DNA of 64,000 nucleotides from Podarcis filfolensis. Taxonomy: Eukaryota. Where the stretch lies: assembly GCA_964270895.1 (NCBI GenBank), contig OZ185440.1. The stretch is one strand, 5' to 3'. The notes under the pieces were generated by a model, which had not been told where the DNA came from, searched no databases, and was given only the letters and a program-made list of their open reading frames with translations. The stretch's first letter is position 1. The number at the start of each line of letters is the position of its first letter. The translations under genes and the position numbers were made by a program. Positions 367 through 63,091 of the stretch are shown here, in pieces.

Positions 367-479
367 CCTTAACTCCCATGCTATTTCCCCACAGTTCATG
401 GAACAGAAATGTCTATTACACACACCTTTTTCTCGGAGAACTTTCATCAGTCGGCCCAAGCCAAGGGCCCCAGAGGAGC

Positions 480-1250
480 TCCCTCTTCGGCGCCCTTGTC
501 CGCCCTTCGCCTCCTCCCCCTCCCCCCGCACCTCTCCGCCTGCGCTCACCTTGTGGTCCAGGACCCCGATGTAGCCTTCCAAGGGGCGGTCGGGGAGGCG
601 CCTCTGCCCGCTGCCGCCCAGTTGCTGAGGGCTCTCCGGCTTCTGGCTCGCCGTCACCGCCACCTGCTGCTGCTGCTGCTGCTGCGGTTGACTTTGCTCT
701 TTCGGGCTTCCGTCGCCGCTGCTGCCGCCTCCTCCGCCGCCGCCACTACCAGCGCCTCCGCCTCCGATGCTACCATACATGAGCAACAAGCTAGTGCACA
801 TGGTGGTGAGCGCTAAAGACACAGCCAGCCCATGGCGCTGAAAAGGGGGACAAGGAGACACGCTGAGAGAACCCGCCGTGCGCAGGGGAGAGCGCGCTCC
901 CTACCAGGCAGGCGGCGAGCCGAGCGCTGCGGAGCCCGAGGCCGGACGTGGTGGTGATGGCGGAGCGGGAAACGGCGGCGGCGGCGGCCAGGAGGCGTTG
1001 CACGCGGGCGGCTCAGGCGGCAGCACCGTCGCCGGGGTCCCTCGCGGCTCAGTCGCCGCCCCTCCAGGTCTCCCGCTTCCCCGCCGCTCTCCTTCCCACC
1101 TCACCAGCCCCCGCCCCGCGCGCGCCTCGCCGCTTCCCGCCTCGCCTTTGCAACCCGCCACTGTTGGAGGAGTTCTGATTGTTGTCAATAAAAGCTCGGC
1201 GTCTCTCTCTCTTTCTCTCCACACCCGCGCCAGCCTAACTCATGTGAGGC
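480..1250. promoter_or_regulatory. CpG island over ST6GALNAC5 exon 2 and intron 1
   Basis: Very GC- and CpG-rich stretch against AT-rich, CpG-poor flanks. Boundaries are approximate. Confidence 0.8.
550..837 (-). CDS. ST6GALNAC5: ST6 N-acetylgalactosaminide alpha-2,6-sialyltransferase 5, coding exon 2 (TM anchor and polyGly/polyGln stem)
   Basis: Encodes RHGLAVSLALTTMCTSLLLMYGSIG...QQQQQQQ...RPLEGYIGVLDHK, matching the vertebrate ST6GALNAC5 N-terminus. Acceptor is TCCCCCTTTTCAG (838-850, minus strand) and donor is AAG|GTGAGC at 550/549. 288 nt, phase 0/0. Downstream exons lie left of the window. Confidence 0.95.
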
Positions 1251-7669: not shown

Positions 7670-7803
7670 TTTAGAAAGAGTTGGAAGGGATAACAAGTGT
7701 CACCTAGTCCAAACCCACTGCAAATGCAGGAATATTTTGCCTAATATGGGGCTCAAACCTACAACTCTGAGATTAACAGTCTCATGTTCTACCGACTGAG
7801 CTA
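7670..7803 (-). mobile_element. tRNA-Lys-derived SINE with CR1-type tail
   Basis: Minus strand TAGCTCAGTCGGTAGAACATGAGACTGTTAATCTCAGAGTTGTAGGTTTGAGCCCC is a decayed tRNA-Lys(CTT). It is followed directly by TGGACTAGGTGAC...CCCTTCCAACTC, the CR1 3' end. Confidence 0.8.
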
Positions 7804-13950: not shown

Positions 13951-14379
13951 ATCTTAGAGATGAAGGAAAATAGCTGTGGGCTGGTTGTAAGTCTTTCTCT
14001 GTCTGCCACCCCATGTAGTACAGTTAATTATTCTTATCCACAATGCCCCAGACCTGGTCTTGTCAGGAGCAGCCAGATAAAACAGCAGGCATAGCTCCTA
14101 CCTTACAAGAAAGGAACGGTGACATTTTTTTCACATATTTATTGAGAGAATTTCTAGCCTGCTCTTCGTTAAAAATAATCCCGGAGCACAGCACAACACA
14201 CACAGAGACACACAAAATAAATCACATAAAATAAAACCATTATAAAAAAGCAAAAAAAAAATGTGTACTGTAATGTTAAAATGCATCATCACGTACTACA
14301 AACAAAAGGAGTGAGGTCAGGTGGAGAAAGGTCTGTTCTTTACTTTTCATCCTAGTGTTTTAGCCAAGGGAGAGCCCAA

Positions 14380-14515
14380 CAGTATTAGCCAGACTTGGCC
14401 CTCCAGATGTTTTGGGACTACAATTCCCATCATCCCTGGCCACTGGTCCTGTTAGCTAGGGGCGATGGGAGTTGTAGTCCCAAAACATCTGGAGGGCCAA
14501 GTTTGGCCATGCCTG
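14380..14515. mobile_element. Palindromic hAT-type MITE (~135 bp)
   Basis: TTGGCCCTCCAGATGTTTTGGGACTACAA...TTGTAGTCCCAAAACATCTGGAGGGCCAA near-perfect long inverted repeat. Related decayed copies at about 4747-4885, 23465-23593, 42157-42255, 45090-45155 and 56660-56755. Confidence 0.85.
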
Positions 14516-16118
14516 GGTTAGGCCTATCCCAGATTCTGCTGCTGCTAAGTGCAAATAAAACTAAGGTTAGTGAAGGTGAAGGATGAAGAGAAATCAGGTA
14601 TGATGTGGCTAATGCACCTGTAAAGCTAAACAACTAAACCAGCCTTCCCTAACTTTGTGCCCTTGGGAATACCTACTGGTTCCTTCAGACTCACCCCGAT
14701 AATGCATCAGCTAAGGGGCATGGCCAGCCCCAGCAGGGACCTCCTCCTGGCACCAACATTATCATTTGTTTGACACCAGGGTTAAGGGATTCCTCTAGTC
14801 TTAAGTATGTGATGGGACTGGATGGTTTTTAAATACTGGCATCATGCTAATCGATTATTCCTAGTGGTTTCTCATTAGTAATGGTGGGTTCTGATTTTTC
14901 GTGTATTATGGATGTTGCTGTTGTGTTCATTTTTTCCACTTTTAGATAACTGAATTGCTGTAAGAAGCTTGGAGTCCCCCCTTTTTTTTTTAAGATAAAG
15001 GTGTCTAATAAATTTAGTAAACCTAAACCAATGAGTTGGATCCAGACGTAGAACAGACCTAATAAATCAATGGGACTGCTCTAAGTTTGATTAACACTCA
15101 ATTCAACACAGTGTGTATATGATTTAACAAAAATAGCATTGTGAAATAGCATTGGAGACAAAACTACCAGCACTCCATAGTCCAAGGGCCAAGGGGATGA
15201 GAAACACTCAGTAAATACTATCTTCTGGAACACTCCCTGATGACAAGACTAGAAGCGCTGCAGAAAAGTCCCCCTGAGGCCCATCTCCTACAGACAGTCC
15301 AGAAGGGTACCATGGTTGCGATGGTATCAAAAGCTGAGAGTCCGAGGAGAAGGAGATTCACAACTTCTCTGTTCCTTCTGAGACGTCTACAAGTCACAAT
15401 GGCTTAAAGTAAACTCCAGGAGAAACTACACAGGCTTGGCTGTGCTTTTGCAAAAGGACAGAGTCACCTAATTAATAGTTATTGCATCAACTTCAGTCAG
15501 CAGTTGCAGTAACAACACTGATGATATTGATGGCATTGGAGAGCCAGGCTTAGCTCAGAATGAAAATGAGCAGAGCAGTCATCTATCAAATCCATATTGC
15601 TGTAGGCGGTGGGAGGCAGTGGAACCTTTTGTTTTTGTTGTTTTCTTGTTCAGCTAGTTTGTTTTAGTGGTTCAGCTCCAAGTGATTTAGATGTATAAAT
15701 AAATGAGTATATACAATGTCAAATGATATGTGCTTACTGGAGCCCTGTGGCTAACACCAGTTTTTCATGAAAGACCCAGGGTGGTGGTGGTTGTTTGTTG
15801 GTAACCCTCTTTCTTGGTTTACAGTGACAGCTACATGTAGGTGGGTGAGAAGGTAGGTAGTTGGGAGACTTCTCTTTAGGAAACATCTCTCTTTCCTTTT
15901 GCTCGATTCCGGACAGTGGTTGGCTGAAAAACATGCCATCTCTGGCATCTTGAGATAACCCTCCCAATTTATTGCTGCCATCTGCAGTAAGTCTTTGATC
16001 TAACCCATCCTGACAACTATCTCCTCTCTTTTATTTTAACAATCTATTTGACTTATGACAAGGATAAGCTATCATTTTGTTGCAAAATCTGGAACCTCTG
16101 CAGCCGATTTCTTCACCT

Positions 16119-16230
16119 GTATATATACATACAATATATATATATATATATATATATACACAATATACAATATATGTAATACAATATACAATATACAATA
16201 TATGTAATATATATATATATATACAATATA
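16119..16230. repeat. (TA)n / (ATATACA)n compound microsatellite
   Basis: Directly visible. Confidence 0.9.
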
Positions 16231-16905
16231 GTCCATTTCAAGGATCCCACCTTGCCTAGCTTGCGCTTTCTTAGCCACTGTGTGTTACTCCTACATCCAA
16301 TTACAAGAAAGAACGGAAAGAGCTGTGCTATGAAGTCTCAACCGATGTTGCATAAAGTCAGATCGCATTGCTTGCTCTACAGAGCAAAGCTGAATTATGT
16401 AGGTGATTTCAAAGTCATGAGTTATATTTGAGAATGAATATTATATACATGATATTTTGAATTTGTGTGTGTGCTTTCATAGTATTGAGAAATCTGATTG
16501 ACTGAAAGGGATCTTAAAGTGTTTCTATGTAGATTATAAAAAAACCAACAACTTGCTGGCTTTTTGAGAGAAGATAAATGTATAATTGTTTTTATTTGTT
16601 TTAAAATGTTCTGTCCCTTACCTTTGTATTGAATTTTGTGGCCTACAACCATAATAAATCACAATAAATTGCTTGAACTTGCTTAAGTGATGCTATAATC
16701 AACCATTTAGTTGACTAAGGCATCATATTGCCTTTTCACTGCAACGTTTAAATTGCAACACTACGAATCAAGCCAGTGAATTAACTCATATGTTAGCTCT
16801 GAAGAATCTACAGATTAATCAAAGATCATGAAATCACAACAACCCAAAACCTATTGTGAACAATCTATTCTCAAGTCAATACCAATGCCTTGGTAGGGTT
16901 TGAGG

Positions 16906-17029
16906 CAGGGATGGGGAACCTGTGGCCTCCAGATATGGTTGGACTACAACTCCCATCACCCTTGATTACGGGTCATGCTGCCTGGGCCTAATGGGAGCCT
17001 TTTAGAGGGCCAGTAGTTCCCCACCCTTG
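16906..17029. mobile_element. Palindromic hAT-type MITE
   Basis: CAGGGATGGGGAACCTGTGGCC...GGCCAGTAGTTCCCCACCCTTG termini, with the GGACTACAACTCCCATC core. Confidence 0.8.
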
Positions 17030-17088
17030 GGTTTAATTCCTCAAGCCCCACTGTTCCTGTTTTTGAATGTGCCGATATCAATACTTCA

Positions 17089-17400
17089 NNNNNNNNNNNN
17101 NNNNNNNNNNNNNNNNNNNNNNNNNNNNNNNNNNNNNNNNNNNNNNNNNNNNNNNNNNNNNNNNNNNNNNNNNNNNNNNNNNNNNNNNNNNNNNNNNNNN
17201 NNNNNNNNNNNNNNNNNNNNNNNNNNNNNNNNNNNNNNNNNNNNNNNNNNNNNNNNNNNNNNNNNNNNNNNNNNNNNNNNNNNNNNNNNNNNNNNNNNNN
17301 NNNNNNNNNNNNNNNNNNNNNNNNNNNNNNNNNNNNNNNNNNNNNNNNNNNNNNNNNNNNNNNNNNNNNNNNNNNNNNNNNNNNNNNNNNNNNNNNNNNN
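17089..17400. other. Assembly gap (312 N)
   Basis: Run of N, abutting a palindromic MITE on its right side. Confidence 1.
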
Positions 17401-17535
17401 AGGCATGACCAAACTTGGCCATCCAGATGTTTTGGGACTACAACTCCCATCACCCCTAACTAAAAGGACCAGTGGTCAAGGATAATGGGAACTGTAGTCC
17501 CAAAACATCTAGAGGGCCAAGTTTGGCCATGCCTG
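17401..17535. mobile_element. Palindromic hAT-type MITE
   Basis: AGGCATGACCAAACTTGGCC...GGCCAAGTTTGGCCATGCCTG. Same subfamily as 14380-14515. Confidence 0.87.
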
Positions 17536-20350
17536 TCCTATGCAAATCAATAGACGCCCTATTGATGGTGGTGTTCTGGATACCAACAACAACATCCTGT
17601 ATAGAAATGCTGAGTATCTATCAAAACTCTTAAAAACTTTCAACTCAACACAGGGGGACAAAGTAGAGCTGATTTAATGACACCCCAAAGCATGCAAACA
17701 TGGTTTGCTTGGCATGCTTCCAAAGCAAATCCAAAATCATGCTAATTAGATCACTGGGTAGAAAGTATATGTAGAAAGTAGCAACGCATTAAGGGTTGTT
17801 CCCTCACACTTTATATCAGGTTCCCCCAAGAAAAACAGTGTGGCTAGCCATTATTTATTTGCCATATAAATAATGTCCCATGAAACCAGAAGTAACTTTA
17901 CTCGAATATATGGCAGTTTCTGAGCTTGCATCTGGGGGAATCAAAATATAAAGGTGCCTCAGCAATGCTTACTTTCCCACTTGTGATTGACTGAAATGCA
18001 TCCTGCTATTGCCTCAAGGGAGGGTATATCTCTGCTTATCATCTTTTCTGTTTTCACTTTATGTTAATAAGAGCTTAGCATAATGGACCAATAATGAATG
18101 CTATTTAAATGCCCATATATTCCTGAACATCTGTTGATGCATATGCAGAATACAATTTGCACATATGAGTACATGCTGCCAGTTTGTGCACGTATTCCCT
18201 CTCCGTAGGACGTAGAAGTAGGTGTGACACATTTCTGAATCGAATAATAAAAATGTGTCAGCTAAGCTCGTGCTATTTATGTCTCTTGCTCGTAATGCCA
18301 TGTATCTGCCAACCTTTGCAACTGGCTCTTTCTAATAGTTCTCAATGAAATAGCCAAATCTTGAATTTGCAAGGCATGCAAATTCCTATAGATTTCTTCT
18401 AGTGTTTTGTTCTGCTTTATAGAAGTCTTTGCCTGCTTCTGTAGTTCCCAGTATAGTTATGCAGGCATGGTCACAACTACTGCTACTTCTAGGCAAAATG
18501 TTGGTTAACCTAACGCTTGTGACATTTAACAAACTCTTTTGTGTTCCAGTTACCTAAATATGGATGGGCTAAATCCTGTACTAGATTGAGTTTTCACACG
18601 TTGTGATTTTTAGGTGTACAATTAGGAGTTTAAGCACATAGCAGGGTGGGAAACCTGAGCCTCAAGGGACAAGTGTAGCTCCCTATTTGGGCCTTGGCAC
18701 TCTCCCATTGACCACCCTGCTTTTGTTTGGCTGAAATGTGTCCTTGAATTGTGTTAATGCCTCTTGTCTGTCTGATAAGAATATGGTGGTTGTAGGGAAA
18801 GCTATGTGTACACAGCAAACATGTGTAGAAACCTCCAGTTTTTGTGTAGCTAAAATGTAACATTGCTTCACCCACTCTTATCCCTTCCTATGTTATCCCC
18901 AAAAGAATTCCTATTTCCATTTTCATCAGAGAAATGTGGGAAGGTATGGAATAGGATGTCCCTATTTTCATCTGAGAAAGGTTGGAGTGTATGCTTTAAG
19001 GCCTAGCTCACTTGCAGTTTCACAGAGAGGAAGCGCATACAAGTCTCCAGTCTCTGGCATTATTTTGTTTTCTGACAATGTCCATATTTCCTTGCTAATC
19101 GTTTTAAAAATGCTTCTGTCTGTTTACTTTGTGTGTGGACAGCCACATCAATTTTATTTTTCGAGATCTTCTGGAAAACGCCCAAAGTTCCAGCTTGCAG
19201 TTTTGATCACGAGGCCATGTCATCAAAGCATTATGTGCAAGACTGAATAAGTGGTCATTCTTCAGAGCACCCTTCAGATACTGAAAGCCAGCAGCAGAGA
19301 ACAGCAGAAAACAAAGAGTATGCTGGAAGGAACAACTGAGTCACATGCTTGTTACAACCATATCAGCGTTAACAGGGAATGGCAGCTTCAATCCCCACCC
19401 ACACAGCCTTGCTCTACTGTCAAACACACAAGCACATAACGATTAGCAAGAGGGCAAAACTGATCTTTCAAGATATTTATGCACCCTGTCAAGGAAATGC
19501 CGGCTGGAACCACACTGACAATGACAACAGCTTTGCCAGTTCTGAACAACAGAAAATCCACTGTGGGATTTAAACAAAAGAAAGCCATATTTTGTCCTGA
19601 CAAGCAATGTGAAGTCATCTGTCATTTCCCGCACACACATTTTGGACTGGTGCTGGGAAGGTTCAAACTCTGGTGTACTCAATAAATTTTTTATTTTTGG
19701 CAGCATTTCTGTTTAATCTTTACAGAGATTTTACAAGAGGAGGTTGGAAAAAGTTGGCCTTGTAGAGATAAGTGCCTGTGACCTTAAACAATATCTTACA
19801 TTTCACTTCAAAAGCACATAGCTCTAAAACTGTCCTCTTATTTTAATGAAATTATTTCATGTTATCTGCTACTCACTAAATAACTGTGTCTCCATGCATA
19901 CTGGACCACATGACCTATCTTAATGAGCCTTGGCTGAACAACAAATTTATTTTTACCCAATTGGCCTGCTTTAATTAGATCAGGCCACCATGGTTTTAAG
20001 GGAATATCAGCAGTTCCACCAGGAACACCTTTATTTCTAAGAATTTATAGCTATGAAAGCAATGTGATGAAATCATCTTCAGCAATGGGTGCCCAGTGTC
20101 TATGTTGATGTTGTTTTGCAATCTGCTTGCCGAGATTATTTTGGAAACTTTTGAGTTTTCCTGCAACCTTTTTCTAAAGTGTCATGCTATTAGCATATGC
20201 TGTGAGTTAATTGCTTCTGGTGCTTCAAGGCAGATCAGCTTCGCAAAACAATTAAAAACTAATAAATGGAAACTGCTGACAATCTCAAACTATAAGATGA
20301 ACTGACTTACACACTCTGACTGTCCACTGCTCCTATAAGTTTGCCCAGAG

Positions 20351-20489
20351 CAGGTTTGGGGAACCTTTGGCTCCCCAGATGTTGCTGAACTCCAACTCCT
20401 CTCACCTTAGACCATTGGGTATGTTTGTTAGGGCTGATGGGAGCTGTAGTTCAGCAACACCTGAAGGGGCAAAGGTTCCCCTTGCCCCT
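20351..20489. mobile_element. Palindromic hAT-type MITE
   Basis: GGGGAACCTTTGG...AAAGGTTCCCC inverted termini and a TGTTGCTGAAC/GTTCAGCAACA inner palindrome. Confidence 0.8.
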
Positions 20490-20660
20490 AACCTGGAGCA
20501 TGGTGATGGATGGGGAGAGGAAGATGAGCAGAGGGCTTTTCTAGCTGTAAGTAGCAGGATATACCAGGAGTCTCAGTTGTGGAAGGGCCAGTGGCTACTT
20601 CTGATCTTTTAGTTTGCTCCATCATATACATGGCAACGATTTACAAATGGTATTTCAGAT

Positions 20661-20828
20661 CTGTTCTTAACCTGAAGCACCACTTTAGCTAATGGGGCCT
20701 CCTGCTGCCGCCGCACCGCCGGAGCATGATTTCTGTTCTTATCCTGAAGCAAAGTTCTTAACCTGATGCACTATTTCTGGGTTAGCAGAGTCTGTAACCT
20801 GAAGCATATTTAACCCGAGGTACCACTG
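20661..20828 (-). mobile_element. pogo/Tigger-like MITE, partial
   Basis: Ends in CGAGGTACCACTG+TA. The interior is the reverse complement of the 49417-49647 copy. Confidence 0.8.
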
Positions 20829-20945
20829 TAATCCATTCCAGACTTTTAAAAACAACCCCTAAAACAGCAATTTAATATGAAATTTACTGTCTAACGAGAC
20901 CATTGATCCATAAAATGAAAGGAATAAACAATGTACTGCAGTCAC

Positions 20946-20976
<31 letters not shown>

Positions 20977-23900
20977 CAAACTGATCTGGAGATGTTGAGA
21001 ACTGACCTTCAGACTGGAAAAATGAGAAACTGAAAGAAATGAAAATGGACAGATCTGAAATTCCAAACGTTCCTATCAAATGAACTATGAAACAACCAGT
21101 TCATAACATTTCAGTCACAAGGCTGCTAAGGAATATTTGACTCTACCATGACTGAATTTATAATAAATGAGAGGATTACTTTTATGAAAAATATGTATAT
21201 ATGTCCTTTTTATGGTGATGTGGCTGAGCAGGTAGATTATTTATACTCTGTGACATATACATGCTGAAAGCAGCCCTACATTAGTTTAATAAACCCATGC
21301 TGATCTGATAATAATGCAGCAAGCACACAAGGGTGGATAATTAGAGCAAACCTTGCATTTTAAGTCATTACTTGAACAACAGACTGATTGATTAGGATCC
21401 AATTCTGACTATGTCAATACTAGTTTAAAATATGGATGGCAGAATGAAAGAACAACAGAGTGGTCTATTTCCCAGCGTTATGAAATTATCTCCCAATGTG
21501 TAAATGGCCATGTAATAAAACTGCATTTGAATGAAAACTATCATAGGTTGGGTGGCAGAAAACTTACTGAAAACACTTTCACACACACATGCTGATGGTA
21601 GCGGTGCTGGTGGTAAGAGGGGGTATCTGTTGAAACAACCCACTGGGCCTCGTAAGTGCCAATCTCCAGGTTTCCCTCACCTTCCAAGAAGGACGTTAAA
21701 AGGATTCAGGCATTTGCCATCAAAAGAGGAACCTAAAAGCCCTCGTGTACATCCACAGGTGTTGATTTGATCTGGGCTAAATACTTCACCACTTTTCTAA
21801 TTCATCCTATTTTGAAAGCATTTATTGATCCCATTCTTTTTCTTTCCCCTCTCGCGAATGGGATGCGCAACTGAGGAAAGTTATGTATAGTATTTGGCTT
21901 TCCGTTTCATTAATTTGTATTTACAGGGTTTTTAAAATGTTCATTAACTTAAAATAATTTGTAGCTGTAAAAGTATACAACCCCTACTCTTTCCAGTAAT
22001 TACAATCGATCATAAACAATATCAGAGCATGGTTTAAGAAAGCTGTGGCCCTATTTTCTTTCACTCATTGGTGGAAAAGCCATGCTTGGGGATGTAGAGG
22101 CATTTTTTTATATATATAAAAAATGTCTTGATTGTATATTGTGATCATTATCGTTTTCCTAATGTGATTGGTAAAGCATCGATTTCAGGAATAGAAAACA
22201 GATGCCAGCAGAATTTTATTGCCATACAGATGGAAGCGACATAGTGACATCTCACATTCTAAACAGAGTCTACCAGCAATATCTATCCAGAACACTGTCC
22301 CACTCCACCTACTGATTAAGAAAGATACTGCACTGTAGGACTTATTAATGCTGCAATGGATGCTAGCTTGTTAATGGCCCAGGAGATTGCATGCAAATAG
22401 ACCAGAATGGCTGCTGGATATTTCCTCATTGGGAGCTAATTGTTAGCAGATATCCAGAGTCCTCTCAAGTGTAATTCATTAGTCTTTGGGAAGGTGCACC
22501 CCCATCCCTGCTTCCATTTAGGAAAGGGGCTAATTAATACTCCTCTCTCGGTTGTGGAGATCAACAGAAGCAGTTTCAAAATAGTAGGCATGCACAGAAT
22601 TAATTGAAGGCTGAAGCATCTTTAGGAGCTGGGTGCCTCTCTCTGGGAATCTCATGTCAGGTAACGGATCTTGTGAGTGCTGCTTTCCTCCACCTATGCT
22701 ACAGCCTACTCACCCTTTGGAAATCAATATTTCAGAAACACCATCAGCTTTGCAGTTGTTTATGTTCCTATTTAATGTGCTTAGTCCACATGACGTTACC
22801 CTCAAACAACACCAGTCTAAATGCTTTCCCCCTGTAAATTCCAGTTTACCTGGCACAGAGACAATCCAATATGTTGGGGGATTCTGGGCTCCAAATCACA
22901 TCACTTGGAAGTAATAGACAATTTGTTCTTGCTACTCCACTTTCCATGGCTCCCTACTGCCTCAATGGTTTAATTTCTTTTGAAGCCTTGTTTGTACCTA
23001 TTTCCACTGAACAAAGTGTGGCCTTAGACATATTATATTTTTTAACACCTCAGATTTCCACAAAACCAGAAAACTGCATAAATGACCCACATTTTTGTTT
23101 TGTTTTGTTTTACAACCAAACAGTGTAGAAAATAAATAAATCAAAAATTGTGGATTGTGAAATCTGCAATTGTCTGACTGTGCTTTCCCGCAATTCCTGG
23201 ATGGGGATCCCCCCCACCCCCAAATATGGTGTGCACTCAGCTATGTGCATGGCAGCACATGCCCTGTTGGTTCTTAGTCAATGCAACAGAACCAGCCAAC
23301 TAGAAGGCATGGGCAACCACTAAAGGGAATGCCTGCTGGAAAGATTAAAATTGTTCCTCAAATACATGTAGATGTGGACTACTCTGGTCTAATCCGAATT
23401 GGAGGGGGGAGTGAGTTAACAGCTAAATAATGTTGAAATCCCCAAGTCTCTTGTGCTCCAAAAGAGAGCCAAAGCTTGTGGCCTTCCAGATGTCGTTGAA
23501 CTACAATTTCCATCATCCCTGACCATAGATCATGCTACCTGGGGCCCAGTTGTGGTTGGAGTCCAATAACTTGTCATAGGTTCGCCAGTCCTGTCTTATA
23601 CAGAAGAAACAAAAACTAAGAGGACATGCTCTGGGATGCACAGAAGGCAGAAGTTGGGTCTGCCTTTCTGTTTTTGTAATCTCACCAACGGAAAGTCAAG
23701 CCACTAAAGAAGATGCCTGCTTCCATTTGCATAGCCCTGCCTATAATTTTTTTTTCTTGGCTATGCTAGTGTGTGGTGGAATTTTAGAAAGCAGCTTATC
23801 CAATTGACAAGTGCGGACTGGTGACAAAATGTTGCAGTCCCTACTGTTGCAGCCAGCCTGCAACAAGGAGCTCTATAGCACTGCTTGAGTTCAACATAGG

Positions 23901-24002
23901 AGGCTTGGTTTCTTACTTTCTGAAGTATGAGAAGAACCTGGTGAAGAGAAAAGGCAGCTGCAATAAAGATTCCACGTCCAATTTGGCTTCTTTGTAATCC
24001 GA

Positions 24003-24041
24003 AATTGGGATCAATAATTGGGATCAATAATTGGGATCAAT
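24003..24041. repeat. Three perfect tandem copies of AATTGGGATCAAT
   Basis: Directly visible, period 13. Confidence 0.95.
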
Positions 24042-24287
24042 AAATGAACTGTAAAGTACAGTAATGGGAACTCTGGATCACAGTTGAGGCCATCAACTTG
24101 CCTACAATGAAAATGAAGCCTACAGTACGTAGCATTTTTAGCCTACACATAAGAAATGTAACCTTTGCCTGTTAATGTGCTTTGTATTTTAACATGTGCA
24201 AGCTAAAGGCTCTAAATAAAGGTATTAGTATTGGCATTTGTTTAATAATTAATGGTGGTATAGAAAGTTAACTAGGGAATTTCAGGT

Positions 24288-24425
24288 CAGGGATGGGGAA
24301 TCACTGGCTCTCCAGATCTTGCTGGACTACAATTCCCATCACCTGTAACAACCGGTCACGTGGGCTGGGGATGATTGGCATTGGGAGTCCAACAGATTCT
24401 GGAGAACCAGAGATTCCGGGTCCTG
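24288..24425. mobile_element. Palindromic hAT-type MITE, decayed
   Basis: CAGGGATGGGGAATCACTGG start and GGACTACAATTCCCATC core. Confidence 0.7.
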
Positions 24426-24779: not shown

Positions 24780-24831
24780 GAGGCCAGATATTGAACTTGG
24801 GACCTTCTACATGCAAAACATGTTCCCCACC
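24780..24831 (-). mobile_element. Old tRNA-derived SINE head interrupted by the provirus (continues at about 30643-30665)
   Basis: TTGAACTTGGGACCTTCTACATGCAAAACATG is the reverse complement of the B-box/anticodon region of the SINE family seen at 32914. Confidence 0.55.
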
Positions 24832-25489
24832 TGTAGAGATGTTCTCTTTATGTGCCAGTATAGTAAAACACTGGTTCTTTTCTGTGGCATTCTGGGAAAC
24901 TTTTCCTAGCTACTTCTGAACCTTAAAATCTTTCTCTGCTTCTCTCTCTCATACACACTGTGTAAAGATGTGCTAGGTACACACAAATTCCATTCTTTGC
25001 ATTCCACTCTTTTTTCACTCAGGTCACATTAAGTTTACAATGATCTGTTTTCCTTCAGTGTATAATTAATTAGTTGTTCTGTTTTCCTTCAGTGTATAAT
25101 TAATTATTTGTTTTTATATTCTTATCATAACATTAGTAATTGATTTAGACATAATATAACCAATCATAAATCTAGGTGGATTAAAAGCTTAGATACTTGT
25201 CTAAGGTCCATTAGCAAAAGACCCTTTGAAGAATTGGAGATTAATGGATTTTGGGTAACCCCTCCTTATACCTATGTTAACCAATAAGGAACTAGCCTCT
25301 TTGTTTGTATTTTAACCAATCAGCCACTAACATATGAGTGGCCATGCTTTTGTAAGATTCAATAAAAAGAGAGACACAGATGAGTTTCAGGCACGCACGC
25401 ACTCTCTCTCAAGAGGCAGCCTTGGAGCTCAGCTGGGGATCTCAAAAACACCATCCACTTGTTTGCCTTGATTCGAACGCAACTCAACA
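24832..25489 (+). repeat. 5' LTR (658 bp)
   Basis: TGTAGAGATG...AACTCAACA. CCAAT boxes near 25160, 25281 and 25316; AATAAAAA at 25361. Contains a 34-bp tandem duplication (25044-25111). Confidence 0.97.
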
Positions 25490-25491
25490 TC

Positions 25492-25509
25492 TGGTGACCC
25501 CGACGTGAT
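25492..25509 (+). promoter_or_regulatory. Primer-binding site, tRNA-Trp
   Basis: TGGTGACCCCGACGTGAT is the 18-nt complement of the vertebrate tRNA-Trp 3' end and the same PBS as avian sarcoma-leukosis viruses. It lies 2 nt after the LTR CA. Confidence 0.92.
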
Positions 25510-25603
25510 TTCGACGAAGTAAGGTACCAGGTCCCTTGCAGAGCTAGGAAAACCTCATACTTAATCCGACTGGAAAAAAGTCTCAGCGCGCTATTTCATA
25601 AGT

Positions 25604-27148
25604 ATGGGAGGGAATCTGACAAAAGGTCAAAAAGCTCACGCAAATGAATTATTTAAATTAGTCAAGCAAAAGGGGGATGGTGTTCAAATTTCCTTAAAAG
25701 AAATTGAACAAATGTTAATGGAAATAACGTTCCAATGTCCATTTTACGCAGACAAAGGGTCTCTGGACATAGAGACCTGGCAAAAAATTGGAAAAACGCT
25801 TTTTTCTGAGCCAAGGGCTCCGATCGATTGCTTGCTTACTTGGCAAAAATGTGCAAATGCTATTGGTAAATTAGGATTGTCGTCTTCCTTACTTTCTACA
25901 TCCCTTGCTTCCGCACCTGATCCTCCCCCGTACCCACAAATCTTGCCTCCTTTGACTTCACCCCCCTCCTTTCCCTCTCAGCTCGAAGCAGCTCCGTGTC
26001 AGATTAATACAATCCCCCTCTCTCCCCCTTCTCTGCCTGCCACTCCTCTGCCGGTGCCTGCGAGCTCTGCAGAAGCTGCATCTCAGCCTGCTGTTCTTTC
26101 CTCTCTCCCCCCTTTGCATTCTGTTGTTCCAAATGTTTCTGGGGTTGTCCGTGCAGGAATTTCTGAAGCCAGGCAGGAAGGTCTTTTATCTTTAGAAGAG
26201 CAGTCTGCATGGTCTGGGGAAATGCCGTCACTTTTCCCTTTCACTTATCAGCCTATCCCAGGGACAGCACAGCAACAGGTATTTCATGATAAGCTTCCAT
26301 ATTCCATAATGAAGGAATTCAGGAAGGCTATCTCTGACTCAGGTCTTAAATCTTCATATGTTAATGGAATGTTGGAATGTATTTCAACTTCTTATGTCAT
26401 GTGTCCTAATGATTGGAAAGATCTTATGCATATGATTTTATCCCCTGCACAATATGTGGTCTTTGAAAGTGAATTTAAACATAGTGCGATAGCTCTGGCT
26501 GATCCAATGCATACAGCAAGTCAAATTTTTGGATCTGCCCCATTCGATAGCTTGGCTGCACAAGCATTATTGTCAGCTTCGCATTTCAGCCGCACTGCGA
26601 CCTGTGTCCAGCGCGCCATTCGTAAAGTCCCTGTCTCAGGGCAGCCTCTGAACTCCTTTGTAAATGTTAAGCAGCAACACTCAGAGCCTTACCATCAATT
26701 TATTGATAGATTAAAAGAATCAATCTCTAGACAGATAGATAATGAAACAGCTCAGAATGAGTTGATGAAAAAATTAGCCTTTGAGAATGCTAATACTGAT
26801 TCTAAGAAGGTGTTACAATCTGTCATAAGTCGTTCAAAATATAGTCTTGCAGATATGATACAATCATGTACAGAAATAGGGAGTCAATCTCATGCTATGT
26901 CTTTACTTGCCACTGCAATCCAAACTAATAGCAGGCCAACAGGTAATTGTTTCAATTGCAAGCGCCCTGGGCATTTTGCTAAGCAGTGCAGGGCGCCTGG
27001 CGGAGGTGCGAATAAAAATACTACTGCAAATACTACTACCAGACCTTCAAAAAAATGTCCAAAGTGTGGAAAAGGGTATCATTGGGCAAATCAATGTAGG
27101 TCTCAGGGAAACTCCTTAGGGGCCCAACTCTCAGGCCCGGAAAATTAG
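25604..27148 (+). CDS. gag: Retroviral Gag polyprotein (514 aa, intact)
   Basis: Myristoylation signal MGGNLTK and betaretrovirus-type MA (FQCPFYADKGSLDIETWQKIGK). PPPY late domain, MHR (QHSEPYHQFIDRL), and two CCHC knuckles (CFNCKRPGHFAKQC, CPKCGKGYHWANQC). Confidence 0.97.
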   Translation: MGGNLTKGQKAHANELFKLVKQKGDGVQISLKEIEQMLMEITFQCPFYADKGSLDIETWQKIGKTLFSEPRAPIDCLLTWQKCANAIGKLGLSSSLLSTSLASAPDPPPYPQILPPLTSPPSFPSQLEAAPCQINTIPLSPPSLPATPLPVPASSAEAASQPAVLSSLPPLHSVVPNVSGVVRAGISEARQEGLLSLEEQSAWSGEMPSLFPFTYQPIPGTAQQQVFHDKLPYSIMKEFRKAISDSGLKSSYVNGMLECISTSYVMCPNDWKDLMHMILSPAQYVVFESEFKHSAIALADPMHTASQIFGSAPFDSLAAQALLSASHFSRTATCVQRAIRKVPVSGQPLNSFVNVKQQHSEPYHQFIDRLKESISRQIDNETAQNELMKKLAFENANTDSKKVLQSVISRSKYSLADMIQSCTEIGSQSHAMSLLATAIQTNSRPTGNCFNCKRPGHFAKQCRAPGGGANKNTTANTTTRPSKKCPKCGKGYHWANQCRSQGNSLGAQLSGPEN

Positions 27149-27154
27149 AGAGTT
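27106..27154 (+). promoter_or_regulatory. gag-pro -1 ribosomal frameshift signal (G GGA AAC plus H-type pseudoknot)
   Basis: Heptamer at 27106-27112 in the correct gag phase, then a 7-nt spacer. Stem 1 GGGCC/GGCCC (27120-24/27134-38), stem 2 AACTCTC/GAGAGTT (27126-32/27148-54). Confidence 0.9.
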
Positions 27155-27882
27155 CCCCACCCTTAGTTTCTGCTGTTGCAAAAGTTTCTAAAATTGTGCC
27201 TTTTGAATTTGCTATTGATTTGATCAATCAAGAGGCCAAAGACACTGCCTTACCTGGTGAAATTGTGATCATGCCTAGCCAAATGGCAGGTCCACTCCCT
27301 TCTACAGTCACAGGTTTAATTTTGCCTAAATTTTCTGCGGCAAAACAAGGAATCCAGGTTATTCCAGGTGTTTTACATCATGATTATGTGGGCACCATTA
27401 TGATACAATTTTGGAGCCATATGCCAATGCAGTTAACTAAGGGTGAGTCTTGGGCACAATTGGTAATGCTTCCTTCTCCACCTAATGTCGTATCAGCTAT
27501 TGATAATAATTTGTGCGAGCTCTCTTCTTCTATTTCCTCACAGCTTTTGGCTGTGACACAGAGAATTGGACGACAAAAACTTCTTCGTAAGTATAAAATC
27601 AATGGAAAAATTATAGAAGGTTTGATTGACACAGGTGCTGACGTTTCTGTCATTTCCAGTAATTGTTGGGACTCCACATGGCCCTTAGAATCTGCTCCTA
27701 CAGTGTGGGGTGTGGGTGGTAACCAGACTTCTTGTAAAAGCGCACAGTGGCTACCTGTCTCTCTGCCAGACAGCTCTGAAATTATTGCATATATTCAGCC
27801 CTGTGTGCTAAACATCCACCTCAATTTGTGGGGAAGAGATTTACTGCAACAATTAAATGCTACTATTCAATTAAATGAGTAA
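27106..27882 (+). CDS. pro: Pro ORF: degenerate dUTPase domain plus aspartic protease
   Basis: The -1 frame is open from the slip site to TAA at 27880-82. dUTPase-like segment GLILPKFS...GVLHHDYVG...GESWAQL. Protease motifs GLIDTGADVSVI, GVGG and NLWGRDLL. No G-patch. Confidence 0.93.
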   Translation, partial: GKLLRGPTLRPGKLESSPPLVSAVAKVSKIVPFEFAIDLINQEAKDTALPGEIVIMPSQMAGPLPSTVTGLILPKFSAAKQGIQVIPGVLHHDYVGTIMIQFWSHMPMQLTKGESWAQLVMLPSPPNVVSAIDNNLCELSSSISSQLLAVTQRIGRQKLLRKYKINGKIIEGLIDTGADVSVISSNCWDSTWPLESAPTVWGVGGNQTSCKSAQWLPVSLPDSSEIIAYIQPCVLNIHLNLWGRDLLQQLNATIQLNE

Positions 27883-29494
27883 GCATGCTCTTCCCCTCAG
27901 CTGGAAATCTACTAACCCTGTATGGATAGAGCAATGGCCTCTTACTGGGGAACGATTAATTGCCTTAAAACAATTGGTCAATCAGCAATTACTGGCTGAC
28001 CATATTGAACCTTCAGTTAGTCCTTATAATACTCCAGTTTTTGTTATTAAAAAGAAATCAGGAAAATGGAGATTATTGCATGATTTAAGGCACATAAATA
28101 AAATCCTTGAACCCATGGGGCCTTTGCAATGTGGTCTTCCCAATCCAAATGTGATTCCACATTCTTATCAATTGGCTATAATAGATTTGCAAGATTGTTT
28201 CTTCTCTATCCCCCTAGAGGAGAAAGATCGTAGATATTTTGCTTTTACTGTACCAGTAATTAATAATTGTCAACCAACTGAGAGATATCAGTGGAAAGTT
28301 CTCCCTCAAGGAATGTTAAACTCCCCTACCATGTGTCAATATTATGTTAATCAAGCCCTTAAGCCTTTCCGTCTTCAGTATCCACACCTGCTGATTTACC
28401 ATTACACGGATGACGTTCTGATTTGTGCTCCGTGCCTCCCCCCTCATTGGAAACAGGATTTAACAACCTGTTTGTCATTGTATGGTTTAAAAATTGCTCC
28501 AGAGAAAGTCCAGGAAACTTCTCCCTTTCAATATTTGGGACACAAAATGATGGCTAGCTACTCTATTCCTATAATCCCTGAACTACATGTTCCTAAAACA
28601 ATGAAATATGTTCAGTTGCAACAATTGCTGGGTAATATTAACTGGATAAGGCCTTATTTTAAAATCCCTCTTGAAGTTTTGCGACCGCTTTTTTCAGCCT
28701 TAAAAGGCCATCAATTTCCTGGTGAGCAAATCACCTTGACACCTGCTCAACAGAAAACAGTTGCCCATCTGAAGGAACTCATGAAAATTCACTGGGTTGA
28801 TCGAGCAATTCCTAATGTTTTGCCCGATGTAGTCATAATGACAGATGCTATCCAACCTTTTGCAGCCATTATCCAGATAGGACCATCTAAAGTTCACATA
28901 ATTGAATGGATGTATTTACATCATACACCAAGGAACACAGTAACTCCCTTGGTGGATCTCCTTGCTCAGCTTATCTGCAAAGGGCGCCGTCGTTGCAAAG
29001 CGCTTTTTGGCACTGATTGTAATCAAATTATTCTGCCTATGCCTTTAGAGCAATGGGAAACTGCTCTCTCCAACAGCATGGATTTGCAGTGTGCATTGGC
29101 TAACTTTGTAGGTCAAATAGATTACCATGTCCCTGCAGACACTCGCTTGCAGATGAGCAAACAATTTTCCCTGTCATTCTTTTCTATTCTGTCTCCTACC
29201 CCTTTGGATGCCCTGACTGTCTTCACTGACGGATCTCCCACTAGGGGAGTCGTTGCTTGGCAACAGAACAACGAATGGAAAAGTTTGTACACTTTGCCTC
29301 AAAAATCTGCTCAGCGTGCTGAGTTAGCAGCTGCTGTAAAAGCGCTGCATCATTTTTCTTCACAACCTATTAACTTAATAGTTGATAGTTTGTATGTATC
29401 AAATGTCATAACCCGCATACAGGGCAGTTATGTAAGTCCTTTATTGGATGACAACTTGTTGAGTCTTTTCCTGTCCTTGCAATTGCTTCTTTAA
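27875..29494 (+). CDS. pol: Pol, RT and most of RNase H (539 aa); integrase absent
   Basis: PVWIEQWPL, PYNTPVFVIKKKSGKWRLLHDLR, IDLQDCFFSIPL, LPQGMLNSP, YTDD, then RNase H motifs FTDGS / SAQRAEL / VDSLY. Terminates at the deletion junction. Confidence 0.95.
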   Translation: MSKHALPLSWKSTNPVWIEQWPLTGERLIALKQLVNQQLLADHIEPSVSPYNTPVFVIKKKSGKWRLLHDLRHINKILEPMGPLQCGLPNPNVIPHSYQLAIIDLQDCFFSIPLEEKDRRYFAFTVPVINNCQPTERYQWKVLPQGMLNSPTMCQYYVNQALKPFRLQYPHLLIYHYTDDVLICAPCLPPHWKQDLTTCLSLYGLKIAPEKVQETSPFQYLGHKMMASYSIPIIPELHVPKTMKYVQLQQLLGNINWIRPYFKIPLEVLRPLFSALKGHQFPGEQITLTPAQQKTVAHLKELMKIHWVDRAIPNVLPDVVIMTDAIQPFAAIIQIGPSKVHIIEWMYLHHTPRNTVTPLVDLLAQLICKGRRRCKALFGTDCNQIILPMPLEQWETALSNSMDLQCALANFVGQIDYHVPADTRLQMSKQFSLSFFSILSPTPLDALTVFTDGSPTRGVVAWQQNNEWKSLYTLPQKSAQRAELAAAVKALHHFSSQPINLIVDSLYVSNVITRIQGSYVSPLLDDNLLSLFLSLQLLL

Positions 29495-29810
29495 CATCAC
29501 TGACAATTCCAAAGCCGTTCAACGTCAAATTTCTCATTTGCAAAATCTTACCCATCATATTAAACAGGACATTGGGTTCTCTGGTTTCTGGGATTCTATT
29601 TTTCAGTGGTTCACTGGCTGGTTGCCTAATTTAACTTGGCTTCGTAGTCTTTTTTATTATGCCATAATAATTGTATGTATATTAATTTTGTTCTTTTGCT
29701 TCCTCCAATGCATTCCTAGCCTTACAAATCTTTTTTCTCGCCTTTTCTCTCCACCTCAGCCACCTAGTGCTCTCCTCGCTGACTATTATTCGAAATGGCA
29801 ACGCCAATAA
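29481..29810 (+). pseudogene. env: env remnant: C-terminal half of the TM subunit
   Basis: The frame reads NCFFNITDNSKAVQRQISHLQNLTHHIKQD...LFYYAIIIVCILILFFCFLQCIP...KWQRQ*. This covers the end of the Cys loop, HR2, the membrane anchor and a short tail. It resembles ASLV TM (CCFNLSDHS...LLVVCLPCLLQ). Confidence 0.85.
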
Positions 29811-29993
29811 TAAACAAAAAGGGGAAATGTGGGTAGAATTATTTTGGGATTTACTGGCAAACCAATAATCCTGAAAGTACTCATGCCCCATCCACCCTCG
29901 CAGTATTATTTTGGGATTCGATGGCAAACCACTGATCCCAAAGCACTGCTGCTTTATTTTGCTTCATTCAACAAGTTGCCTTATTTCGCAAAT

Positions 29994-30010
29994 AAGAAAA
30001 AAAAGGAGGA
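29994..30010 (+). promoter_or_regulatory. Polypurine tract
   Basis: AAGAAAAAAAAGGAGGA followed by GA|TGT. GATGT is the exact inverse of ACATC at the U5/PBS junction. Confidence 0.9.
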
Positions 30011-30012
30011 GA

Positions 30013-30636
30013 TGTAGAGATGTTCTCTTTATGTGCCAGTATAGTAAAACACTGGTTCTTTTCTGTGGCATTCTGGGAAACTTTTCCTAGCTACTTCTGA
30101 ACCTTAAAATCTTTCTCTGCTTCTCTCTCTCATACACACTGTGTAAAGATGTGCTAGGTACACACAAATTCCATTCTTTGCATTCCACTCTTTTTTCACT
30201 CAGGTCACATTAAGTTTACAATGATCTGTTTTCCTTCAGTGTATAATTAATTATTTGTTTTTATATTCTTATCATAACATTAGTAATTGATTTAGACATA
30301 ATATAACCAATCATAAATCTAGGTGGATTAAAAGCTTAGATACTTGTCTAAGGTCCATTAGCAAAAGACCCTTTGAAGAATTGGAGATTAATGGATTTTG
30401 GGTAACCCCTCCTTATACCTATGTTAACCAATAAGGAACTAGCCTCTTTGTTTGTATTTTAACCAATCAGCCACTAACATATGAGTGGCCATGCTTTTGT
30501 AAGATTCAATAAAAAGAGAGACACAGATGAGTTTCAGGCACGCACGCACTCTCTCTCAAGAGGCAGCCTTGGAGCTCAGCTGGGGATCTCAAAAACACCA
30601 TCCACTTGTTTGCCTTGATTCGAACGCAACTCAACA
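30013..30636 (+). repeat. 3' LTR (624 bp)
   Basis: By manual comparison, identical to the 5' LTR except for one missing 34-bp repeat unit. Confidence 0.97.
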
Positions 30637-32913
30637 CCCACCTCTGATCCCCAGACCTTCCCATGTGACCCCTATATGATCATATTTTTCATTCAAATTA
30701 TTAAACTTCTACATTAATGTTAACAACCAATGCACTAATCCAGTTAATGCTCCATTCCAATAGTCCACAATGGTGCTGGGATACATTTTCCAAAGGACAC
30801 CTTGATACTAGACATAAGAGTAGCTATGAAGAAACACAATGAAATTCCTGCCACAACAACAACAACATTGAACTGTCTGTTCTTCGTTTACACAGTGGCA
30901 AACAGCATATTACTTGTAAATGAAACATGAAGTAATAAAAGGAGTTAATACTCAACTAACTGAACAATCACCTACTAAGAGTAGAGTGTTGGTAGTAACC
31001 CGATTCATTGTTCGTAGGAAGACAAGATAACACTTATGGTTTTTCAGGGAACTAAGTAAATATGATTGTTTTAAGTGCTCTTATAGCGTTCCCAAAACCT
31101 AAAATGACCCAGCCTTGAAAAAGATGTTACAGCTCTTTCTTTTAAAATTTGTGATGACATTTTATTAGCTTGATTCAGGGGGTGGGGGTGGAGTAGAAGC
31201 TCACTGATGGCTTTACAATACAATAGCTAAACAAAATGGCTTTCAGCAAACCACTTGTTATAAGTGCCTTATTTAAAATGTTGTGTGCAAAAATTAATTA
31301 GTTACCTTACCATGGGGTTTCGAAATTGCTTGGTAGACCTTGAACAAAGATAACAAATAAATGGCAATCATATTGGGAGCATTGCTTGGATCTAGTTTTT
31401 GTTTAAAGGATTACCAATGTGAAAGCTGAACTAAATGCCACCTATATAGTTTGTCTCATTTGGTAGGTTTTTACTAACAATTCTGTAAGGTGGAAACATA
31501 GCAAATGTCTAAATAAGAGGCTGGCAGTGAAGACCCTCCTAGCCCCCATTAGGATAAAATCTGTTCTTAATAATGTTAAGCATGGATTTTTATGTCTAGG
31601 AAAAGGACAGAAAAACAAGCTAATAAGCTATTTTATACTCTTATGGGCTCAATTCCCCCTTCCATTAAAATCCTTGTAGGAATTGAAAATACAAAGACTT
31701 CCATATGCATAATTATGCTGTTAGCATATTAAGCATGATACTTATTAATGCAAGTGCTGTGATTGTTCTCTCCATCCTCTTTTCAATTTAACCTGAAACA
31801 AAAATGTTCTGGAGAATTCTGGTGTAAGATGTAGTCACACAGGATTCATGCTGGTATTTGTGCCTGCCAATTCCACCACCCCTGCTTTTTTGGGGTTGGA
31901 TTCAAAACAGAAAAGGGATACCCCTTGCAAGACTAGAATAGAATAGACTAGAATGGATAAAAGATCTTGCAGCCTCCTTGGTACATCTCCAAGGAGCATT
32001 GCTGCAAGTTCACAAGCGCCTAGCATGGCATTACTACCTGCACAGCAAAATCATGTGCTGTCTAGACTAACAGCAGCATACAGCACTGATTCTGAGATGG
32101 TGACAGACACACAACCCAAAGCAAATGGGAAGATACCCTTGAGGCCTCTTTTGGGATGCCCACTTCTTCCACGCCTTCCAGTTTCTTCAACTTCCAGATA
32201 CTGTATCCCACCCAGCTGAATTGATTTGGAGGAATCACTACAAGGAGATGTTTGGGCATTGGAGGTGCTTCTGACCCTTCTTGCCCAAAACATTTGCCAT
32301 TACTGGCATCACATTTTTTAAAAAAATATGGTGCACAAATGGGAGGTGGAATGGAGAGAGTCTTAAGGTTTACCTAAAACTGACATGCCCAGCGATCAAA
32401 TTCATGTGCAGGCAAAGAACGAGCACAGGATCTAAGCATGCAATAAGGCCAGACCAGGGAGCACATAACTACCAGCTCCTGAATGGATTTTCAGTGACCT
32501 AAGATAATTGTTGGGACATCCCCATCTTAAGCTTCCCCATGGCTACTAAAAATCCTGATGGAAATCAGAAGCCCAGGCCAGGGAACTAGTGCCATCAGCT
32601 CCTTGAATTGGCCTGATGATATTTGCAGCATTTGCTTACTCTAATACTTTAAAACTGTAAATCACCTTGGGTGCTGTGGCAGAAAGATAGTTGCATAGAA
32701 TGCAATAAGCAAAAAGCATAGTGACTGGATGTGGATTGTTTCAGCTATGTGGTGTAACCTAGGAGTCTAGAAAAAGGGAATATATTTGAAAGAATGCAAC
32801 AGTAATTTCTATCAATAATGTTTCATAGTTACAGTCTGCTACTATGTCTTTCTCCAACTGTTTGTAACCTTCTTCTACCACTCTCCTGGCCCATATGAGA
32901 GAGTTACCTTTGA

Positions 32914-60455: not shown

Positions 60456-62000
60456 AAATGTTTTTTTAATTATTTCTTTGGAGACTACAGTGCTTTTTTG
60501 CTTTTATTATAAGCAAAAGATCAGTGGAGCTCCCTCCCTGTTTCGCTTTTTCAGAAAAGTATCTTTTATCATCTCTATTCTCTTTGCCGTAATATTTTTT
60601 TTAAAGAAGGGCATGCAGAAAAGATGCACAGGCAAACTTCAAACCATCAAAGTGATGGGGAGAAAAGACAAGTTTAATCTTTCTTTGATGTTTTCCTGCA
60701 AGCTTACAGAGAAGACATTTCCACCAAGTAGGACAGATGGGATGCTTTCCTCTAAGTATACCGTTGACTGTTCTCTGCATACATATGCAGGCAATTCTTT
60801 TATAAGATCCTTTTCTGGGCTCATACAGAGGTGTGGCACTGGGGAGATTAAGCTGTTTCTTTTATGTCTGTTCAGCAAATACCTTTTTATCTGGCAAGCT
60901 TCCAGGCTGATTGCAAGAAGGAAGTTTTAATACTTAGTGATGGTGGAACATCAGTGCTTTCAGCTGCTCAGAAGAAGAGTAGATTATGGACTTCCGGAGG
61001 CGGCGCGAAACTGTAATGGCGGTCCTCTTCTAGTCTGAAGAGGGGCTCCGCAGGAAAGGGTCGTTTCGCTGCGGCACAGCGACGACCCATCAAGAAAAAC
61101 CACGAGCAGAGTGAGCTCGTGGCCGTGGGACTCGGCGGGCACCTGGAGCGACCCCGAAATCGCGAAAGGAACCCCGTAAGGGGCTCCGGAGTGAAAGAGG
61201 GGTAGCGGTGCTGTGAGTTCATCGCTCTTTCTGCGGGAGTGAAGCCGCGCAGCTGTTGCAGATGAGCGCCGACCTTTCTTCCTTTAAAGATTCGACTGAA
61301 ACAACAAACCCGTGAGTAAGGACGTTAAATTCGGCAGTAAATTCTTGAAAAAAATTTTGGCTGTAACCGGGAGACGTTAAAAAGGAAGTCCGCCTCCCGG
61401 AGCTGCTTACAAGATCAAAGCAAGGGATCAGAGAAGCGAAAAGCGGCTGAAAAGGGATGTTTTAAAGAGGGACTTTCATGCACTTTCAGAAGTGACTGTT
61501 AACGAGAAAAGATAGACTTATTTGTGAGCAATTTTTTAAAAGGAAAATTGGAGCGATCCTCCCCAGTAAGATCATTCAAAGCTAAATTCCAAATCGTCGG
61601 GCTGCTGGAGGGGAAACTGTTTAACTGCGGAACTGTTACAAATTGTTACAAACTTTTACAGACGTATGGATACCCTTGAGCTTTTGAGCTTTAACAAGCT
61701 GGACTGGATACAAATTGTAGGCACCTTTTTGAAACTTTGTTAAAAGTTTAAAGTACTCTGCAGGACTTGTTTATTACCATTTGGGACTATTGCATTTCTG
61801 TTTTTTAACATACAGGGGACTTTAATGGCGGAAAAGTTGCCTTCTTCTTTTTGAAACTTTGGTGGTACTCCCCCTAGAGGATTTTGGGAATATAAGGCCT
61901 GGGAACAGCTTTTTATGTTTACTCTCTCTCACTGGATTGTTTTTAAATTGGATCTGTCTTTCCCATGGGACAATAACAATTTGACCTTGAACATTGACTG

Positions 62001-63071: not shown

Positions 63072-63091
63072 GTGTAACAAAACAGTACAGG

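Follow-up and report, generated by a model that had tools for sequence, protein, structure and literature searches.

A 64,000-nt stretch of Podarcis filfolensis DNA (contig OZ185440.1, assembly GCA_964270895.1; hereafter the window) contains an endogenous retrovirus (ERV) at 24832-30636 on the plus strand. Taken as a whole, this provirus probably entered the germ line very recently as a non-autonomous, internally deleted member of a class II (clade Shui) lineage that is spread across reptiles, is related to the python ERV and here carries an alpha-type env. Its parts follow the order long terminal repeat (LTR), primer-binding site (PBS), gag, pro, partial pol, tail of the transmembrane subunit (TM), polypurine tract (PPT) and LTR, and are bounded on both sides by CCCACC, a 6-bp target-site duplication (TSD).

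Structure and age of the provirus

The following features were identified:

24826..24831 (+): 5' TSD, CCCACC
24832..25489 (+): 5' LTR, 658 nt, TG...CA, with CCAAT boxes and AATAAA at 25361
25492..25509 (+): PBS, 2 nt past the LTR, 18/18 match to the Rous sarcoma virus (RSV) leader
25604..27148 (+): gag, 514 aa, open; MGGNLT, beta-type matrix (MA), PPPY, capsid (CA), two CCHC knuckles
27100..27882 (+): pro open reading frame (ORF), shifted by -1 relative to gag; encodes a degenerate dUTPase domain followed by the aspartic protease (DTGAD, GRD)
27106..27112 (+): slippery heptamer G GGA AAC, in the gag frame
27857..27882 (+): pro/pol junction, pol at +1 from pro
27875..29494 (+): pol, 539 aa, open, truncated; reverse transcriptase (RT, with YTDD), thumb, connection, partial RNase H
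29484..29491 (+): junction left by the internal deletion, where RNase H runs into TM; a few bases belong to both the pol and the env homology
29484..29810 (+): what is left of env, the C-terminal half of TM, with 70% identity to the alpha-type Env P0121
29816..29833 (+): a second PPT/TG junction, not used, 185 nt upstream of that in use
29994..30012 (+): PPT adjoining the 3' LTR
30013..30636 (+): 3' LTR, 624 nt, TG...CA, with AATAAA at 30508
30637..30642 (+): 3' TSD, CCCACC

The match between the flanking hexamers holds at exactly 6 nt and fails at 3-5 and at 7-9 nt; a 6-bp TSD is an Alpharetrovirus trait as well. A sequence-only reading of this DNA, made by a model, had described a perfect 6-bp TSD, open gag, pro and RT frames and a very young insertion, and all of this was borne out: no stops interrupt gag, the 260 codons of pro or pol. 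Its claim of LTRs without substitutions holds for the aligned bases (0 mismatches in 624 positions), but the LTRs are not identical, as one extra copy of a 34-nt tandem unit is present in the 5' LTR only (about 25041-25108). The two copies of the unit are 94% alike and, because they already differ, loss of a unit from the 3' LTR would be the simpler reading. The absence of substitutions gives a 95% upper bound of 0.5-2.4 million years on the age of the insertion, calculated with substitution rates assumed to lie between 5e-9 and 1e-9 per site per year.

Collapse of the LTRs during assembly, an eventuality raised in the sequence-only reading, would also produce apparent youth, and one 312-nt gap is present elsewhere in the window (17089-17400). 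However, the 34-nt difference between the LTRs argues against simple collapse, 1,300 codons run without a stop and the two TSD copies match perfectly; such an artefact is very improbable. The structural features of a class II ERV (clade Shui), namely LTRs, PBS, PPT and TSD, are all present, and the RT groups with those of alpha-, beta- and deltaretroviruses and lentiviruses. No further copies or solo LTRs of the provirus were found within the window; Rfam detected nothing in the provirus, and ARAGORN found no tRNA.

The PBS, which we take to pair with tRNA-Trp, is followed by a gag in which Pfam recognized Gag_p10, Gag_p24 and two zinc knuckles; the MGGNLT at its start is presumably a myristoylation consensus. 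In pro, Pfam detected dUTPase and RVP domains and no G-patch. The beta-type gag/pro layout, the RSV-type PBS and the lack of a G-patch had all been recognized in the sequence-only reading. The PBS consists of the same 18 nt as those after U5 in the RSV leader printed in PMC11769450, and G GGA AAC is the gag/pro heptamer of Mason-Pfizer monkey virus (MPMV) too (PMC12789967). The predicted RNA fold past the heptamer was no better than shuffles (z -0.65).

The dUTPase domain announced earlier is indeed present N-terminal to the protease (Pfam E 4.6e-10), but its motifs are degenerate. The domain keeps the signature of its fold. Compared with turtle (Caretta) and bird (stork) rows, motif I is altered, II reads PKFS, III reads GVLHHDY and the Gly-rich V is absent. 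PKFS is also found in two Podarcis models, which points to a lineage-wide decay, while a turtle relative retains the dUTPase motifs. An Atlas search returned dUTPase-protease clusters only. All five motifs build the dUTPase active site (PMC8961515); the enzyme of the provirus is probably inactive.

In pol, Pfam recognized RVT_1, the thumb and a partial RNase H, inside which the frame ends; no integrase (IN) was found by Pfam in the provirus. The best PDB match of the RT is 7sr6 (408 bits), which we take to be human ERV-K (HERV-K). The RT motif is YTDD, whereas among 50 named or reptile-clade rows 45 have YMDD, one has YTDD and four were not scored; all 15 reptile rows that span the motif carry YMDD. 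Compared with Podarcis relatives, ∼340 Pol and ∼380 Env residues (∼2 kb) are absent, comprising the end of RNase H, IN, the surface subunit (SU) and half of TM. Podarcis lilfordi P0016, which extends from the RT connection to IN, aligns only as far as RNase H, and the Env P0121 of the same species only from residue 383 on. Judging by this coding content, the copy is non-autonomous and defective, in line with the earlier suggestion that a helper is needed; the RNase H-to-TM deletion, YTDD, the degenerate dUTPase and the +1 position of pol were absent from that reading.

The diagnostic part of Env is deleted in the provirus, and the alpha-type env class is read from P0121, which is 70% identical over the remnant. 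The TM C-terminus had been called similar to that of avian sarcoma-leukosis virus (ASLV). Taken alone, the remnant has no real match in PDB (one chance hit, E 2.6), and the likeness appears through P0121, whose best PDB match is ASLV TM (E 2e-13). A search for longer homologues of the remnant gave one match among 94 candidates. P0121 combines a furin site with an internal fusion loop bounded by Cys, an immunosuppressive domain and CX6CC, and it has no CXXC; such a loop without CXXC is the alpha Env pattern (PMC9967133). Its named relatives among 25 Env matches come from turtles, four lizard genera, a rattlesnake, an alligator and a caecilian, with no avian leukosis virus Env among the 25. An Env tree of 13 rows (2 of 10 branches starred) places the remnant next to rows from Podarcis, turtles and Sceloporus and resolves nothing more. 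P0121 and its reptile Env relatives also have a long leader with a PVTWGxxKxL motif, which in our view resembles the Rec/Rem-type signal peptides of betaretroviruses. Alpha-like envelopes are described as ubiquitous in reptiles, and they occur on gamma Pols too (PMC13568524).

The unused PPT/TG junction probably marks the place where an earlier 3' LTR began. Two imperfect 37-nt repeats lie between it and the used junction. The C-terminus of the turtle Env P0123, KNKKGEM, resembles NKQKGEM, which is encoded by the unused tract in another frame; this likeness suggests LTR replacement.

These features are consistent with the following course of events. The LTR transcript would yield myristoylated Gag and, by a -1 shift at G GGA AAC, Gag-Pro with its probably inactive dUTPase, and tRNA-Trp would prime reverse transcription. 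The few-base overlap of pol and env homologies at the deletion junction makes RT template switching the most likely way in which the genome was shortened. Since the copy lacks IN, Env and part of RNase H and its RT carries YTDD, a complete relative would have copied and integrated the shortened genome in trans.

Pol relationships and the alpha-like traits

A Pol search gave 317 matches at E<=1e-40, and the figures given here refer to the best 120 of these. Every named protein within the top 16 rows came from a turtle or squamate, with 48-56% identity, and a Podarcis row was 84% identical over the RT connection and RNase H; overall, the proteins of the provirus are 70-88% identical to Podarcis models, which fits a lacertid host, although viruses of this kind cross hosts. 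Fifty-three Pol rows were cut and 15 partial or redundant ones dropped, leaving 38 rows in the first tree. The second tree contained 26 rows, with neighbours added to break up the long alpha branch. Both were built under LG+G4 only, with some outgroup labels assigned by eye, and unnamed matches of possibly human origin were kept out of them. The alpha anchor, P0264, is an unnamed protein assigned by its IN (460 bits to RSV IN, compared to 166 for the next integrase group).

In both trees the query fell into a clade of turtle and squamate rows, with support of 100/99 (14 of the 38 rows) and 100/98 (9 of the 26), its nearest neighbours being a tortoise row and one unnamed row. In the 26-row tree this reptile clade is sister to a 95/99 group made up of the alpha anchor and avian and mammalian beta rows. 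Approximately unbiased (AU) tests, for which the reptile group was defined after the first tree had been seen, rejected in the 26-row tree a grouping of the query with alpha (p about 1e-89) and of the reptile clade with mammalian beta rows (SRV/IAP/HML-like; p=0.00075). A QCGxPNPN-type motif is present in 13 of 18 reptile-clade rows and in none of 32 named bird or mammal rows. The python ERV Pol (PMC1224870, supplement 6) shares this motif and RNase H features, as compared by eye.

The sequence-only reading had seen in the provirus a squamate lineage bridging alpha- and betaretroviruses, and a position between the two, near the ASLV ancestor, has several points in its favour: the PBS is identical to that of RSV, the env is alpha-type, the G-patch is missing and the dUTPase is decaying while a turtle relative keeps the motifs. 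Moreover, a union of the reptile clade with alpha survived the test on the 38-row tree (p=0.132), and ERV-AB is reported near alpharetroviruses (PMC12690878). However, the same union was rejected in the 26-row tree (p=0.026), as was that of the query with alpha, and Pol identity is 33% to the alpha anchor but 38-43% to most bird and mammal beta rows. The clade also takes in turtles. Furthermore, PBS type distinguishes families poorly (PMC8922424), and alpha-like envs pair with gamma and epsilon Pols as well (PMC13568524; Anura preprint). A bridging position is therefore improbable, and the separate turtle and squamate Pol clade does not agree with it. The PBS, the env class and the lack of a G-patch appear to be traits that non-mammalian class II viruses have in common or have exchanged, and they are no evidence of descent between ASLV and MMTV-like viruses (MMTV, mouse mammary tumour virus).

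Several points weigh against membership in a distinct reptile lineage as favoured here. No named ASLV, MMTV, HERV-K, python ERV or ERV-AB row is included in the Pol trees, and the anchor P0264 lacks both a name and the first 100 RT residues. A single model was used, the root of the trees rests on long branches, the 38-row tree did not reject the reptile clade together with alpha, and the placement comes from Pol. The ERV-AB pol was put close to alpharetroviruses, unlike the placement here if the two are kin (PMC12690878). It should also be noted that the deletion could postdate the insertion.

The pro/pol junction

In the pol frame a stop lies directly before the ATG at 27875, and the pro stop follows at 27880-82, five bases on (AUGAGUAA). 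The start of pol at this AUG overlaps the pro stop, and the -1 frame is closed at once. The second -1 shift of betaretroviruses, from pro into pol, was not found, pol being at +1. The RNA fold past the junction was no better than shuffles (z -0.68). The Podarcis model P0145 enters the same Met through the +1 frame, with 7 of 12 upstream residues identical compared to 1 and 0 in the other frames. The pol lineages of the window and of Podarcis are ∼16% apart, and the window copy has 0 stops where ∼2.9 would be expected under drift (P=0.056). Identity to Podarcis is 84-88% for RT, 75% for CA and 70% for the TM tail. Pol looks to have been under selection since the two lineages split, and the +1 offset may therefore be natural. 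Near the junction, CAATTAAATG is present twice within 27850-27877, 18 nt apart, and a mini-ORF of five codons, starting at 27857, runs right up to the pol ATG. P0144 and P0145 both have mid-RT joined to late SU at the same place, which suggests that they share another class of deletion, or else a splice, in the Podarcis genome.

If the junction is functional, the lacertid lineage would make Pol without a second -1 frameshift, by termination-reinitiation at the AUG and stop, by a +1 shift at the stop, or from a spliced pol mRNA. The closed -1 frame, the stop directly before the pol ATG, the fit of P0145 to the +1 frame, the stop-free pol and the better conservation of RT than of CA or the TM tail are all consistent with this, and AUGnn-stop is the geometry of calicivirus termination-reinitiation (PMC3542737). 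A Met is also found 12-22 residues ahead of PVW in 11 of 13 reptile-clade rows that show the RT N-terminus. However, this Met is not specific, as 4 of 12 informative named bird and mammal rows and MMTV have one, and for six of the reptile rows, which are unnamed gene calls, the first M may stand for a different start codon; the conserved Met was downgraded as proof of an own start codon after these controls. P0145 is the one informative relative, a spliced gene model and seemingly another deleted copy. Upstream of the junction there is no exact match to a termination upstream ribosome-binding site (TURBS), nor an exact UGGGA, and UGUGGGGA, which lies 53 nt ahead of the stop, belongs to the protease coding sequence. 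The python ERV is given as -1/-1 in PMC3482500; RetroTector called 27 of 99 pro/pol junctions of beta ERVs as +1, for which the authors warn of post-insertion indels (PMC1224870). A functional route would also have to account for the packaging of an unfused Pol, and a functional +1 junction seems unlikely.

Alternatively, the junction may be an inherited defect of a non-autonomous subfamily that is spread by a helper with a canonical junction. The provirus is defective in other ways, and P0144 and P0145 likewise go from mid-RT into env, suggesting many deleted copies. The open pol and the better preservation of RT than of CA and TM across 16% divergence are modest evidence against a defect, to which we assign an even chance. 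Also unlikely is a broader proposal in which the lineage has been recently active, makes Pol without the canonical -1 shift (from its own AUG or by a +1 shift) and is losing its dUTPase; Trp priming and the alpha-type env could then be ancestral, because the trees put the lineage sister to both alpha- and betaretroviruses.

To our knowledge, no orthoretrovirus makes Pol by termination-reinitiation or a +1 shift, and a literature search, by titles only, found none. If the +1 junction proved functional, it would break the rule for orthoretroviruses, in which Pol is made fused to Gag, through a -1 shift or readthrough. If not, the provirus would be an ordinary young defective member of an under-described lineage.

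Known systems and surrounding sequence

The closest comparisons are with the python ERV of Python molurus/curtus (reportedly Huder 2002) and with ERV-AB (reportedly Chen 2021). The provirus shares with the python ERV and with squamate and turtle clade Shui ERVs the Pol signatures (by eye), a separate pro, two zinc knuckles and reptile hosts. It differs from the python ERV, which is reported to lack dUTPase and to have -1/-1 frames (PMC3482500, PMC1224870); python-like beta ERVs were reported in other squamates and turtles (PMC6001957). With the caecilian ERV-AB-Mun it has in common a class II pol, separate gag, pro, pol and env, an alpha-type env (here via P0121) and a non-avian host, and the 100% identical LTRs of that element compare with 624/624 aligned bases here (PMC12690878). 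ERV-AB-Mun differs in its amphibian host, 325-bp LTR, full length with YMDD and 202 copies, and it is reported to cluster near alpharetroviruses, unlike the window Pol (PMC12690878). Avian alphabeta/avibeta ERVs likewise mix alpha and beta markers, lack the G-patch, keep or have lost dUTPase and in some cases have a non-Lys PBS (PMC3482500, PMC1224870); they differ in their bird hosts, -1/-1 frames and a Pol in another clade.

In Alpharetrovirus (ASLV/RSV) the protease is in frame with gag (0/-1) and there is no dUTPase (PMC3482500). The provirus matches this genus in its PBS and, through P0121, in TM class; it does not share that layout, having a protease outside gag, a dUTPase domain and a Gly2 MA. 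Its Pol does not form a clade with alpha, the anchor being an unnamed protein with an RSV-like IN. With Betaretrovirus (MPMV, MMTV, HERV-K) it shares a Gag_p10 MA, two nucleocapsid knuckles, a pro separate at -1 from gag, the G GGA AAC shift and, with degenerate motifs, dUTPase-pro. It differs in its Trp PBS, alpha-type env and +1 pro/pol, and neither the G-patch nor the tRNA-Lys PBS of the mammalian genus is present. The provirus thus stands outside both Alpharetrovirus and mammalian Betaretrovirus; by Pol it belongs to the python ERV-related reptile clade, and it works like ERV-AB. The mosaic of alpha and beta traits is already known in kind from ERV-AB, avian ERVs and the alpha-like envs of reptiles.

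Elsewhere in the window, an apparently intact LINE start was found at 61998-64000 (+), comprising an ORF1-like frame of 357 codons and, after it, an endonuclease ORF (Pfam E 9e-17) that runs past the window end. A GC-rich ORF at 367-900 (-), without a Pfam hit, seems to us to resemble a coding exon of ST6GALNAC5; the gene would extend past the left end, ∼24 kb from the provirus. A short repeat is present in at least six copies within 14379-24383, some of them inverted and one beside the 312-nt N gap, and we assume these to be typical of squamate elements resembling miniature inverted-repeat transposable elements or short interspersed elements (SINEs). A weak tRNA-like Rfam hit at 7746-7803 (-; 30.5 bits), not called by ARAGORN, is probably a SINE head.

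The literature search found no description of the lacertid family, nor of a reptile class II ERV with an RSV-type PBS, most subscription papers lying outside it. Reptile class II ERVs amount to 12,120 RT loci in 92 genomes (PMC11089739), yet few whole proviruses have been described; a 2025 paper counted three ectotherm examples (PMC12690878). With the provirus described here, very recent activity comes together in a single lineage with a Trp PBS, an alpha-type env and a dUTPase in decay. Such a combination helps to order the gain and loss of the markers that separate alpha- from betaretroviruses.

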